From sequence record PQ850617.1: a stretch of 64,000 nucleotides of DNA. One strand, 5' to 3'. The notes beneath the pieces are model-generated. The model was not told the origin of the DNA. It saw only the letters and a list, made by a program, of their open reading frames with translations, and did not search any database. The position numbers were made by a program, and so were the translations under genes. Of this stretch, positions 28,222-39,434 are shown one piece after another. The number at the start of each line of letters is the position of its first letter. The stretch's first letter is position 1. This stretch comes from Escherichia phage ManiMatter_Bas94.

Positions 28222-28715
28222 TTAGTGTGTATGCATCCAGTTTAACCCAATCTGACAATCAGAAGCCAGAGGACACTCCATGTTCAAGTACTCACCAGCC
28301 TTCTTAACACAAAGCTCGGTGTACTCTTTGAGTTTCTGTACATCATTACGGTTCACTGAGAACTGGCCCTCATCGTGCATATCAATTACCTTAGCACAAC
28401 GAACTCCATCTTTCTCAATCCACTTGTTAAGGAACATCATAGCATATTTCATAACAACAGCACCAGCACATTGCAGGAGTGTGTTAAGGGCTTTATGAAC
28501 CATAACCTTACCAGTGGCATCCCGTCTCATTGTAATCTTACGACCATCAACGCCAATCAAATACCCTTGAGCAGCTTTCTCTGTCATACGATCAATGAGG
28601 ATTGCAATACATGGGTTCTCTGCCAAGAAGCGTGCTCGCATCACTGAACCTTCGTCAGCTCCACCACCTACGATTGAACCAAGCTTAGCATCACCAGCAC
28701 CATAGTTAAACGCAT
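28222..28715 (-). CDS. DNA polymerase (family A, T7 gp5-like), exon 2
   Basis: Begins (Y)AFNYGAGDAKLGSIVG, the second half of motif B. Contains motif C VIDMHDEGQF. There is no start codon at the true 5' end. Confidence 0.85.
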
Positions 28716-29421
28716 CTCATATATTCGACAAGAGCCGCAACACTCTCGCCCGTTCTCTTATGAACTGCTACATGTCGCCATGTAGGATAGACTATATCAT
28801 CACCCTCTGTCGAGGGGTTGGGCGCTTCCACCGGCATTAGCTTCCGGTGTACTCCTTTCGGATAGTCGTTGCACCTTCAAGTATTCTATAGCTGTTTCTA
28901 ATCGGCTAACATCATCTTTCAATAGCCCTAAAGCTCTGTTGCAGTTGTGACACAACAGACCGCGTATTACTCCGGATTCATGGCAATGATCAACCACAAG
29001 TTTAATTCTGTGATGTGTTGCCATTGCAAACCCTTCGCCCTTACAGATAGCACACTTCCCATCCTGATCAGCGTACATCTTTTCGTAATCGCTGGCTGTG
29101 ATTCCATAAATTCGTTTGAAGTAGGAATTTCTCCAGCCCCTATCTTTGCATTCATCAGAGCAATAATGTTCAGATGGTGCATTTGGTTGAAAATCTTTTG
29201 AGCAATTACGACAAGGTTTTGGATTGAACCGACCTTGAGGGTATTTACTTGCCTCAGCAGTCTGTTCTTCTTTAGTTTTAGTTACAGTTGTATATTCCAT
29301 AAGCACCTCCATGTTGAGTTGCTATAGAATACTTGCTTGGCTCAGGATTGTCTACTAGAGAGTTTCCCTGAGTTCACCCAATTTAATCGACGAGATTACT
29401 CTCGAAGTATCCATTTACGTC
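28716..29421 (-). mobile_element. Group I intron (706 nt) with homing-endonuclease ORF, inserted in polymerase motif B
   Basis: Joining ...TTTATCT(29422) to AT GCG TTT AAC(28715) restores RDNAKTFI-YAFNYGAGD (T7 has RDNAKTFIYGFLYGAGD). The last exon nucleotide is U, and UAUCU pairs with intron GGAUA to form P1. The last intron nucleotide is G. GNRA hairpins cgaga-gtaa-tctcg and ctacatg-gcga-catgtag are present. Confidence 0.8.
28800..29300 (-). CDS. Intron-encoded His-Me finger endonuclease (endonuclease VII / HNH type)
   Basis: VVDHCHESGVIRGLLCHNCNRALG is the EndoVII-family signature. An N-terminal Cys cluster is present. ATG 29300 is preferred (GGAGGT SD within the listed start). Confidence 0.8.
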   Translation of the reverse strand: MEYTTVTKTKEEQTAEASKYPQGRFNPKPCRNCSKDFQPNAPSEHYCSDECKDRGWRNSYFKRIYGITASDYEKMYADQDGKCAICKGEGFAMATHHRIKLVVDHCHESGVIRGLLCHNCNRALGLLKDDVSRLETAIEYLKVQRLSERSTPEANAGGSAQPLDRG

Positions 29422-30772
29422 AGATAAACGTTTTAGCGTTGTCACGAGTAGGAAGACCAGCAAGTTTCTGGTTGTGGGAGTGGATATCACCTTCAAGAAG
29501 GATATCACGATACATAATAGCAGAAGCTAAACCACGTTCTGCCAGAGCTTTCTTAGCTGGATTATTCTCTTCGATTGCTTCAGCAAGCATATCCCTACAT
29601 TCTTTAATGAGGTAGTGAGCGAGCATACGAAGTTCAAGTCCAGAACCATCATACCCTAAGAATACTTCTTTACCAGCGGGTATGTAATATTTGTAAGCAC
29701 CTACAGGCTTATCTTTCTTCCCCGGCTTACCTTTCTCGTAAATTACGTTAGTACCTTTTCGTATATAACAACCATCAGGAACAACGTTAGTAATAACGAA
29801 AGGACGAGAGTGATCACTGTCTGAATTATAGTCAGACTCAAACAAACTGCGACACTCATGACCAAACAAACCACGGGAGGGAATATTAACCACGATACGA
29901 TGTTTGAATCGAAAAGTTGGCGTAGCGCAGCTGTTAGCTTCTGCCGAAAGTTTACCATCTTCGCGTTCCTTTGCTATGAGTCCACTGATAAGACCTAGCC
30001 TGTGAGCCGCTACAACGCGCCTCTTAAGCAAACTTCCAACACTCCCTAGCTCGCCCCCTAACCCTTCTTCAAGAGTCTCCTCGAGGTTTGTAGGAGCTGT
30101 AGGCCACTTGTTTGAGGTAGCTAGTGCTATCTTAATCTCATCAAACGTGATAGGTCTACGTCGGTTAGGGTTTAAACCTAAACCAAACACATAAGCCTTC
30201 ATATAGTTCTTAGTCTTAAACCTAAAATGCTTCTCTAAGAACCTCCTAATATCTGCGTCAACCATCTCGGCTGTCTGCTTCTGTTTAGCATTACCTCGAA
30301 TCCAAGCTGAATACCACGCTTGGTATGTTCCATACTTTCGTATATCTTTCTTGATTTCAAAAGTATTCCAAGGTTTCTTTGATACGTTAAACTCTGGAGG
30401 AAGAAAACCCTCATCCATAAGGGCTTCTTTAACTCGTGCATCTTTCGATGGGTCAAAGTCCACGTATTCAACACAGGTGAATGCTCCACCAATGTCTTCT
30501 CTCTTAAGGCCAACTCTATCACAATAGGCTTGAGGCCACTTCTGTAAAGCTCCAGACTTCTTAAATGGCTTCATATAAGTAGAGCCATCTAATCTCATCT
30601 TAGGTAAGAGAGGGATCAGTTCTTTGTCGATATTAACAATAATCTCTTTAAGGAGGTGAACATACCACCGAGCATTTCTTCGGTTGAAACTCACTCCGTG
30701 CTTCGCTTGCTTAGAGATTATATCAGCGACAGTCATCTCTGTCAAAAATGGGAGAGCGTCCGGGTTGCTCAC
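29422..30772 (-). CDS. DNA polymerase (family A, T7 gp5-like), exon 1; polymerase domain only
   Basis: Motif A LGYDGSGLELRMLAHY. Ends ...GLPTRDNAKTFI, the first half of motif B, followed by an intron-borne stop. No exonuclease motifs at the N-terminus. Confidence 0.85.
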
Positions 30773-30788
30773 TTTATACTCCTTTAAA

Positions 30789-37570: not shown

Positions 37571-37579
37571 TCTTATTCC

Positions 37580-38878
37580 TTAGTTATTTGTTTCTATGTC
37601 AAAAGAGAATCCACGACCCGCTTCATCGGCAAACCGAACTGTATGGGTTTGAGGCTCTAATACTTCAGGGTTGTTAGCAATAAAGCGATCAGCGAGACTA
37701 CGACTGACAGTCTCAGCTAACTCTCCATGAGAAGGGATATCAAGATCACCAGCAGCAAAACCCTGACCAGAGAACTGACGTGCGCTAACAGTTAAACCAT
37801 TTGGTCGACCATTAGAACGTCTAGACAACCACTGCTCAAATGAATCACTAGTAACACCAAGAGCCTCTTCAAAAGATGTTCTACGAGTAGGGCTTACTCT
37901 TCGTGACTCTTGTGCTCGACGCATTGCAGGGGCTACAAACACCCCTTCAATTGCATTGTGTCGGTTAGGTTCGTCTTCTCGACCAAGCAGATCACCGCCT
38001 GTGTTAGTCGTTAAGTTTGTTAACCCTTCAGACCAATACGCACGAATCTGGCTAGAGCCATAAATGCTTGACATTAACTGAATCTCTTCATAAGGTATAT
38101 CAAAGAATCGACTCATATCTCGGTTAACACAATACTGAGCACTTGTTGTATCCTCAATAAGAGCAACCTGACCCCGTTCGTTGACCAGATGACTAACCGG
38201 CTGAGGTGTGGGAAGGTGTCGAGTTTGGGCCATGTATTGATATGCAGCTGCTGGAGAGGAAAATCTCAACACTTGCGAGTTAGGCCACTTCTTGTGAACA
38301 TACCTGATTTCACGACTAGAAACAACCACTGGACAAGGGGCGGTCATAGCCAAGTATCCATGAGGGGTCATGAATAAGTTATCAAGAGTCATCGCACCAC
38401 GGCACATCATAGGAAAATTATCCAATACCTCTTCAATAGAAGTAGGATAATTAAACATGAATTGGATACGAACACCATTCCACTGAAACTCAATAATATC
38501 AGTGAATGTTAATTGAGAACCCCCAGCATATGGCTCATCTGTAGCTTCAACAAGAAGAGATGAATACTCAATATCTTGTGATTCAAGCCATTCCTTCACA
38601 TTGCTTTCAATCTCCCGTCCAAGCATTTGCCACTGCTCGGCTGGGATAAAGGTATTTCGAGTTCTTGGTGTTTGTCCTCTGACAATAAAGATATCAATGT
38701 CATGTGGAGCTATGTTATTAAGAACAGCATCACGAATAGCTCCACCAGTAATGATAGGGCAAATACCATCTGGAATCAAGTTGTTGTTAATCAACTGTTC
38801 AATGAAGTGACGACCAACAGTGATATCAGGTTGTTGAGCAACCTTATCTTCAATTCGGTTAATCGGGATAACAATCAT
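37580..38878 (-). CDS. Pol-beta-superfamily nucleotidyltransferase (CCA-adding / poly(A)-polymerase head motif) with a large unknown C-terminal region
   Basis: ITGGAIRDAVLNNIAPHDIDIFIV fits GG.(V/I)RD-x(n)-D.D. Start moved to ATG 38878, just after the exonuclease stop. Confidence 0.5.
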   Translation of the reverse strand: MIVIPINRIEDKVAQQPDITVGRHFIEQLINNNLIPDGICPIITGGAIRDAVLNNIAPHDIDIFIVRGQTPRTRNTFIPAEQWQMLGREIESNVKEWLESQDIEYSSLLVEATDEPYAGGSQLTFTDIIEFQWNGVRIQFMFNYPTSIEEVLDNFPMMCRGAMTLDNLFMTPHGYLAMTAPCPVVVSSREIRYVHKKWPNSQVLRFSSPAAAYQYMAQTRHLPTPQPVSHLVNERGQVALIEDTTSAQYCVNRDMSRFFDIPYEEIQLMSSIYGSSQIRAYWSEGLTNLTTNTGGDLLGREDEPNRHNAIEGVFVAPAMRRAQESRRVSPTRRTSFEEALGVTSDSFEQWLSRRSNGRPNGLTVSARQFSGQGFAAGDLDIPSHGELAETVSRSLADRFIANNPEVLEPQTHTVRFADEAGRGFSFDIETNN

Positions 38879-38879
38879 T

Positions 38880-39434
38880 TTACATTTTCCAATATAATGA
38901 AGGTGGGTCATAAGGATCAAATCCTGTGTGTTCACACAAGTATTTATAAACCTTAACAGTTAAGTTAACGTCCTGTTCACAGTAAGTAAACATATCTTCA
39001 GTGAAAGCATCCCATGCTTCCTCCTGCTCACCGTAATCTCCTTTAAGTTCCCCTAAGAACTCACCCCATTGCTTCAAACCGTGACCTCTTGGGCCATGTC
39101 TAGGGTCGCCTTTCGGATACTCAGGACTGTCACCAATACGGTCAGGTTTAAGATATCGACTAAGACACAGAGTGTCGAAGACGTTAAAACGATATTTAAT
39201 CAGATTGGGATATATTTTCTTCAGAGCACAAAGGTCGAAGTCAATAATGTTATGGCCCACGAGCACATCAGCTTCTGTAAGTTTACGAATCCCATCTTCA
39301 ATTTGGTGAGGCCGGTAGCCCCACCTTTCACCAGTTTCAACATCGAAAATGTAAATACACCATACTTTAGTTATATCATCGTACAGTGCGTTACTTTCGA
39401 TATCAAATGCAAACACTTTCTTTTTCTTTACCAC
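38880..39434 (-). CDS. 3'-5' proofreading exonuclease, homologous to the T7 gp5 N-terminal domain, as a separate gene
   Basis: Exo [11 protein letters not shown], Exo [11 protein letters not shown], Exo III YCEQDV. It is collinear with the T7 DNA polymerase N-terminus as I remember it. Confidence 0.8.

Follow-up and report, generated by a model that had tools for sequence, protein, structure and literature searches.

Our analyses indicate that the replicative DNA polymerase of Escherichia phage ManiMatter_Bas94, of which a stretch of 64,000 nucleotides (nt) was analysed (sequence record PQ850617.1; hereafter the window), is very probably a T7 gp5-type enzyme divided between two genes, that this division is old, and that the polymerase gene carries in addition a group I intron. 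The enzyme would be made from a 184-amino-acid (aa) exonuclease subunit and a 614-aa polymerase subunit. The former would come from an early unit and the latter, encoded 8.1 kb downstream, from behind middle promoters of the phage sigma factor; the polymerase mRNA would be spliced to remove a 706-nt intron before active polymerase is made. As a discovery the split matters little: it is annotated and published for phiEco32-like and LUZ24-like phages, of which it is a known hallmark. A preliminary description of this DNA, made from its letters alone, overlooked that annotation and literature as well as the group I intron. These phages nevertheless provide a natural system for asking whether a T7-type polymerase split at its domain junction works by reassembly or by proofreading in trans. 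The features on which the argument turns are:

38880..39434, minus strand: putative stand-alone 3'-5' proofreading exonuclease subunit, homologue of phiEco32 gp74 (184 aa, GTG start)
29422..30772, minus strand: predicted polymerase exon 1, with the thumb, motif A and the first half of motif B (...RDNAKTFI plus the T of a Tyr codon); by blastn, nt 1-1351 of phiEco32 gp53 at 94% identity
28222..28715, minus strand: predicted polymerase exon 2, with the rest of motif B (the AT of the Tyr codon, then AFNYG), motif C (MHDE) and the C-terminus; by blastn, nt 1352-1845 of phiEco32 gp53 at 94% identity
28716..29421, minus strand: predicted group I intron, IA2 type, 706 nt (Rfam RF00028 and blastn boundaries)
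28800..29312, minus strand: predicted intron-encoded homing endonuclease of the Endo VII/HNH type, 170 aa (Pfam Endonuclease_7, PF02945, 83 bits, E 1.2e-23; PHROG 'endonuclease VII')

A 12-kb query (window 28000-40000) matched 132 phage records, phiEco32-like coliphages nearly throughout, with nucleotide identities over the 12 kb of 98.7% to Bas93, 98.3% to Bas92, 96.9% to LAMP and 91% to phiEco32. By these matches the phage is assigned to the Kuravirus, or phiEco32-like, coliphages. The genes of the region lie on the minus strand throughout.

The exonuclease and polymerase genes

The open reading frame (ORF) at 38880..39434 had been proposed to be collinear with the exonuclease domain of T7 gp5 and to carry its motifs Exo I to III, and both proposals stand. 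It matches Pfam DNA_pol_A_exo1 (PF01612) with 37 bits and E 3.8e-9, passing the cut-off of 23.6 bits, and aligns collinearly to residues 3-185 of T7 gp5 in the PDB (best E 1.7e-11), where four T7 gp5 sequences and nothing else are matched at E <=1. Its Exo I (DxE) reads FDIESNAL with D11 and E13, its Exo II (Nx2-3[F/Y]D) HNIIDFD from N62 to D67, and its Exo III (Yx3D) YCEQD with Y151 and D155, each aligning to the corresponding T7 gp5 motif. The PHROGs families to which it belongs, 38876 and 403, are named 'DNA polymerase exonuclease subunit'. Judged from these profiles and motifs, the product is predicted to be a complete family-A (DEDDy) 3'-5' exonuclease domain with intact catalytic residues. 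A scan of 1.84 billion representative proteins returned 2,718 homologues at E <=0.001. Among the best 150 of them, 86 are at least 560 aa long and 30 are at most 235 aa; all seven of the long ones checked by blastp have a polymerase domain, and several short ones share the C-terminal end point of the window protein and are therefore natural stand-alone forms.

The polymerase gene starts at 30772, about 8 kb away as first described, with 8,107 nt and some 20 genes (small ORFs included) between the exonuclease stop and this start. From the thumb on, its product aligns collinearly to T7 gp5 (E 1e-32). The spliced product, of 614 aa, is 98% identical to phiEco32 gp53, scores 82 bits against Pfam DNA_pol_A (PF00476; cut-off 34.3), and contains motif A (DxSxxE) as DGSGLELR, motif B (RxxxKxxxYG..Y) as RDNAKTFIYAFNYG and motif C (HDE) as MHDE. 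Pfam profile searches of the ORF and of the spliced protein gave no match to an exonuclease family. The preliminary description had named two results that would speak against a split, an exonuclease ORF unrelated to PolA exonuclease domains and a polymerase with an exonuclease domain of its own; neither appeared in profile searches. The polymerase subunit would accordingly be read as thumb, palm and fingers only, of the T7 gp5-type family-A class.

In sequence, one product ends and the other begins exactly at the junction between the exonuclease and polymerase domains. In a MAFFT alignment with the T7-like gp5 of phage Berlin, the exonuclease ORF ends at about residue 209 and the polymerase ORF, whose N-terminus aligns from about residue 210, picks up in adjacent columns; along the PHROG-17 profile of fused polymerases, the exonuclease ORF covers positions 668-826 and the polymerase ORF begins at 836. 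The earlier reading that the exonuclease ORF ends where a polymerase domain would begin is thereby borne out. One genome thus holds a separate ORF in the range of about 165-185 aa that ends at the junction and a polymerase gene devoid of exonuclease. The ratios of non-synonymous to synonymous change (pN/pS) relative to phiEco32, 0.11 for the exonuclease and 0.04 for the polymerase, show purifying selection on both genes. An artefact of sequencing or assembly, or a frameshifted pseudogene, is excluded as the origin of the split: some 20 conserved genes lie between the two over a distance of 8 kb, the layout recurs identically in dozens of isolates that were sequenced independently, the catalytic motifs are intact and pN/pS is low.

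Age of the split and contents of the gap

The same division was recorded by earlier authors. The RefSeq entry of phiEco32 describes gp74 as 'DNA polymerase exonuclease subunit; contains 3'-5' exonuclease domain' and gp53 as 'DNA polymerase; lacks 5'-3' and 3'-5' exonuclease domains', and the Bas93 record annotates both genes in the same way. Separation of exonuclease and polymerase is common to all Kuravirus-like phages (PMC9965538) and to all LUZ24-group phages, in a report that notes its earlier description in phiEco32 and an intron in the polymerase gene of LUZ24 (PMC3517423).

Variation in gap length among relatives had been put forward as a check on how the split arose, and the gap does vary. 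It measures 8.1, 8.0 and 7.2 kb in Kuravirus (window; phiEco32 with 7,991 nt, in the layout primase/helicase, exonuclease, gap, polymerase; Bas93 with 7,160 nt), 6.4 kb in PKM.Lu.22.1 of the Grimontviridae (6,413 nt, with dcd, PhoH and ThyX and without the nucleotidyltransferase; exonuclease 48% identical) and 1.7 kb in PhiCHU, a LUZ24-like Bruynoghevirus (1,659 nt, small unrelated ORFs). The break falls at T7-like residue 208-212 in all three lineages. Since the break point is identical and the gaps range from 1.7 to 8.1 kb, the evidence points to an old split whose gap has gained and lost genes, and probably expanded through nucleotide-metabolism and mobile endonuclease genes.

The preliminary description had seen in the intervening block an accessory island that landed in, or grew out of, the domain junction. 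The part of this idea that survives is that the gap gained and lost genes, a mobile HNH gene among them; a recent landing in an intact exonuclease-polymerase gene of this phage we consider very improbable. It would agree with the presence in the gap of auxiliary genes (dcd, ThyX, PhoH, thioredoxin, Dps) and of that HNH gene, but Grimontviridae and Bruynoghevirus are split at the same residue around other gap contents, the split is common to at least 79 Kuravirus-like records, and the gap genes belong to the conserved core of replication and nucleotide metabolism in the lineage. No close Kuravirus relative with a fused exonuclease-polymerase was found among the related phage records examined; in a vibriophage of the Zobellviridae the two are fused. 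A neighbour-joining tree of about 155 exonuclease domains groups the window protein with the stand-alone proteins PKM, CHU, P0001, P0004, P0007, P0018 and P0030. Five longer proteins fall in the same group, four of them with a polymerase domain by blastp and the fifth, P0108 (312 aa), with no match. This quick tree, built on about 165 columns without support values, is too weak to tell one split from several.

Of the genes between and beside the two halves, about 20 of them in the gap as first described, those with a named product were confirmed by Pfam, and the nucleotidyltransferase by PHROGs:

30789..38878, minus strand: intervening block of about 20 genes (Pfam, PHROGs, and the annotation of Bas93 and phiEco32)
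39428..41218, minus strand: T7 gp4-like primase/helicase (Pfam DnaB_C E 9.9e-11 and a weak Toprim_2 match)
37580..38878, minus strand: nucleotidyltransferase (NTase; PHROG 12715)
37037..37570, minus strand: dcd, dCTP deaminase (Pfam)
35529..36023, minus strand: free-standing HNH_3 endonuclease, between the Dps-like gene and the gp68 homologue (Pfam HNH_3 E 7e-9)
34973..35536, minus strand: Dps/ferritin-like protein (Pfam)
34451..34726, minus strand: thioredoxin, 91 aa (Pfam)
33779..34435, minus strand: ThyX (Pfam)
33420..33776, minus strand: NAD-ligase Ia-domain protein (Pfam)
32273..33016, minus strand: PhoH (Pfam)

The records of Bas93 and phiEco32 label the primase/helicase gene 'DNA primase/helicase'. 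The NTase protein has a strong PHROG 'nucleotidyltransferase' match and none in Pfam; called mechanically, its ORF runs over 37580..38935 (minus strand) from a GTG at 38935 and overlaps the exonuclease gene by 56 nt. Comparison with Bas93 and phiEco32 places the true start probably at Met-20, at 38878, 2 nt past the exonuclease stop. The free-standing HNH gene is found at this site in two of 93 related phage records (XT18 and XT73), is absent from Bas93, Bas92, LAMP and phiEco32, and is probably a sporadic mobile homing-endonuclease gene. The 118-aa protein of 33420..33776, labelled 'DNA ligase' in relatives, has just one domain, the NAD+-binding Ia domain that NAD-dependent DNA ligase carries at its N-terminus (Pfam Nlig-Ia E 2.5e-35), and is a further single-domain fragment of a usually multi-domain replication enzyme. 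Outside the gap, PhiCHU (1..6480) and the window (39428..~43800) share the order RimK-like S6 glutaminyl transferase, gamma-glutamyl cyclotransferase, primase/helicase, exonuclease. This suggests a common origin of the replication module in LUZ24-like and phiEco32-like phages, which are otherwise different podophage groups.

The intron in motif B of the polymerase gene

As encoded, the polymerase gene does not read through. The ORF 29420..30772 is exon 1 alone, halted within motif B (...RDNAKTFI followed by a stop), and motif C is carried by a separate ORF, 28222..28644, a fragment that Pfam DNA_pol_A also matches. Blastn against phiEco32 gp53 yields two blocks, nt 1-1351 corresponding to 30772..29422 and nt 1352-1845 to 28715..28222, and the sequence between them matches Rfam RF00028 along the entire model (positions 1-253) at 43.3 bits (E 6.3e-9), P6 being enlarged by a 434-nt ORF insertion. 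The splice junctions read ...TTTATCT/GACG...ATGAG/ATGCG, with U as the last exon base and G as the last intron base. Exact excision restores the frame and leaves a coding sequence (CDS) collinear base for base with the phiEco32 gene; in the unspliced frame, a TGA stop stands right at the 5' splice site. The polymerase needs a joined CDS call, or else annotation yields two fragments and an endonuclease.

The 3' half of the intron has a fold in common with the introns of Berlin, Vi06 and MQM1, in which compensatory changes affect 14 of 34 pairs across the four introns, and it contains the P7.1-GUA-P7.2 signature (UCCGAAAGGA-GUA-CACCGG..CCGGUG). Hairpins P7.1 and P7.2 linked by G-U-A are a criterion for subgroup IA2 (PMC3428280). 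The Rfam alignment and the four-intron consensus fold are more informative here than the minimum-free-energy fold of the whole intron, which confirmed just the long P6 stem around the ORF. The Endo VII ORF begins within the P6 loop and extends at its 3' end into the ribozyme core (P7-P8). The intron is predicted to be self-splicing, and splicing would be needed for an active polymerase.

At a coverage of at least 80%, Bas93 alone among 50,697 phage records has the same intron, and its GenBank record already shows a joined 'DNA polymerase I' CDS with an 'endonuclease VII' inside. The intron is thus a rare addition that is already annotated. The Bas93 intron goes unmentioned in the BASEL paper, and a literature search for introns in Kuravirus returned nothing relevant. 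Related ribozyme cores or Endo VII ORFs occur in the T7-like Yersinia phages Berlin, Yepe2 and Yep-phi, in Salmonella phage Vi06, in Klebsiella phages and in Aeromonas phage MQM1. The insertion point in the window equals that of MQM1 intron 1, after the first base of the motif B Tyr codon (T/AT), a codon that we take to be the equivalent of E. coli Pol I F762 and T7 Y526. The introns of Berlin and Vi06 lie 5 nt upstream of this insertion point, in a Phe codon (TT/T).

Introns with homing endonucleases usually target invariant catalytic motifs and move between phage families, and the present data fit this behaviour. The introns of phage family-A polymerase genes (PhiI/W31, Berlin/Yepe2/Vi06, Pf-WMP3, SPO1/SP82, MQM1) share with the window intron the IA2 ribozyme class, the P7.1-GUA-P7.2 element, an ORF in P6 and the host gene. 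The ribozyme cores of MQM1 and Vi06 are about 80% identical to that of the window, and the Berlin-type intron is 68% identical in its 3' part. By contrast, the window site corresponds to E. coli Pol I codon 762, the Berlin/Vi06 site to codon 760 and the published sites to 674, 676 and 881 (PMC3428280), and the intron resides in a Kuravirus instead of a T7-like phage. The window intron illustrates transfer between unrelated phage families, and motif B of phage family-A polymerase genes emerges as a hot spot for mobile group I introns, where, across different phages, three insertion points fall within some 20 nt.

Other relatives of the window phage have unrelated introns in the same gene. That of the Bas89 polymerase (about 780 nt; 3860..4642 of sequence L010) lies about 12 nt further downstream, at motif B's second Tyr codon. 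That of pEC-N1203-2Af.1 (about 607 nt; 1993..2599 of sequence L009) interrupts motif C at MH/DE, which is site 881 of PhiI/W31 (PMC3428280), and the record annotates the polymerase as two 'DNA polymerase' CDSs.

Apart from the fact that inteins and introns are known to reside in phage replication genes, nothing speaks for a rejoining of the two halves once they are expressed, whether through a split intein that trans-splices the proteins or through trans-splicing of RNA. Split inteins would place an N-intein of about 100 aa at the C-terminus of the first fragment and a C-intein of about 35 aa at the N-terminus of the second, whereas neither the exonuclease end nor the polymerase start has extra residues relative to fused homologues, which leaves no room for intein halves. 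The sole ribozyme in 27500..31500 is the cis-splicing intron within the polymerase gene, and in the proteomics of SU10 the polymerase was detected at 69 kDa, which matches the polymerase subunit alone (PMC4281155). We give such rejoining practically no credence.

Expression, assembly and comparison with known phages

The timing of the two genes can be read by homology from promoter motifs. One of these lies between them:

36386..36393, minus strand: AATGTATA motif, putative middle promoter of the phage sigma factor (gp36-type), intergenic between the gp69 and gp68 homologues

A search of the window for AATGTATA found seven sites, on the minus strand at 36386..36393, 31892..31899 and 26381..26388 and on the plus strand at 1035, 17918, 26454 and 62173. 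This placement agrees with the three middle and three late promoters known from phiEco32 and SU10, phages in which genes 69-125 are early and genes 25-68 middle (PMC4281155). By homology, the site at 36386..36393 would mark the early/middle boundary between the exonuclease and polymerase genes, placing the exonuclease in an early unit with the primase/helicase, the NTase and dcd, and the polymerase behind middle promoters. The end of the primase/helicase gene and the start of the exonuclease gene overlap by 7 nt, and the two may be translationally coupled.

A separate observation concerns sigma-70 promoters. The first 55 nt of the polymerase ORF contain a perfect sigma-70 consensus promoter (30717..30745, minus strand; TTGACA-17-TATAAT, with an upstream TG). 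Perfect matches number three in the 64-kb window against 0.03 expected, and the two others (60724-60752 and 60945-60972) lie in the early promoter region. The copy inside the polymerase ORF is kept in Bas93, phiEco32 and pEC-N1203-2Af.1 and absent in Bas89 and PKM.Lu.22.1; an internal promoter and replication priming are possible roles.

How the two proteins work together is the less certain part of the account. We lean towards a non-covalent association of exonuclease and polymerase into a gp5-like holoenzyme, rather than a free exonuclease acting in trans, because the inter-domain linker is retained in the exonuclease and stops precisely where the polymerase resumes and because every genome examined with an exonuclease-less polymerase also has the exonuclease gene. 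In the rival reading, the product is a free-standing DnaQ-like nuclease that forms no stable complex with the polymerase and acts in trans or in another pathway, such as repair, recombination or degradation of host or unmodified DNA. This is unlikely in our view, yet it has several observations on its side: the two genes stand 8 kb apart, they fall by homology into different temporal classes (early and middle), and the exonuclease gene is always attached to the primase/helicase gene and not to the polymerase gene (Bas93, phiEco32, PKM.Lu.22.1, PhiCHU). Against independence stand the C-terminal linker, kept to its exact end in three lineages, the constant company of the exonuclease gene wherever the polymerase lacks that domain (also PMC9965538), and the nearest homologues of the ORF, which are exonuclease domains of fused T7-type polymerases.

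Some points weigh against the account as a whole, including the gp5-like holoenzyme. A literature search for exonuclease-polymerase binding or for proofreading by the exonuclease returned genome descriptions only and no biochemical report, an absence of binding reports that also suits a nuclease acting in trans. The Rfam score of the intron is below the gathering score of 50; the 434-nt ORF insertion costs score. Splicing we infer from the viability of Bas93, a plaque-forming isolate with the same intron, and from the TGA at the 5' splice site, at which unspliced mRNA would stop. The temporal classes, finally, are carried over by homology from phiEco32 and SU10.

It is also conceivable, if quite improbable, that the split is functional and not a frozen accident, early exonuclease and middle polymerase letting proofreading be dosed or withheld apart from synthesis. 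If so, it could help the phage to tolerate a nucleotide that is modified or non-canonical; a modification of this kind is what the BASEL authors suspect from the dcd and NTase genes. In the same vein, the exonuclease subunit might dock on the primase/helicase in place of the polymerase.

Among known systems, phiEco32 is the closest. Its gp74 and gp53 are orthologues of the window proteins (aa identity 94% for the exonuclease and 98% for the polymerase) and represent a pair that all Kuravirus/Gordonclarkvirinae phages have, and the order primase/helicase, exonuclease, NTase, dcd ... PhoH ... polymerase and the 8-kb spacing are the same. By contrast, the phiEco32 polymerase gene is uninterrupted, whereas that of the window has the 706-nt intron in motif B, as in Bas93, and the window gap holds the extra free-standing HNH gene that those of phiEco32 and Bas93 lack. 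The LUZ24-like phages (Bruynoghevirus: PhiCHU, TL, PaP3, tf) likewise have a stand-alone exonuclease gene directly after the primase/helicase gene, and PhiCHU has its break at the matching gp5 residue, with a RimK-like amidoligase and a gamma-glutamyl cyclotransferase upstream. They differ in the gap, of 1.7 kb with other small ORFs, in a shorter polymerase (545 aa) and in an exonuclease of about 35% identity.

With T7 gene 5 the window pair shares the family, the domain order, Exo I to III, motifs A, B and C, the Tyr equivalent to T7 Y526, and the gene order of primase/helicase followed by polymerase. It differs in that T7 gp5 is one polypeptide, a fused exonuclease-polymerase with host thioredoxin as its processivity factor, whereas the window enzyme is encoded by two genes. 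The stretch of the window polymerase (its residues ~60-95) aligned to the T7 thioredoxin-binding loop falls about 30 residues short of its counterpart in the T7-like gp5 of Berlin, and the thumb has an insertion of about 70 residues after it. Finally, the window phage encodes its own thioredoxin whereas T7 uses that of its host, and a phage thioredoxin has been proposed as a processivity factor in the Privateer paper.

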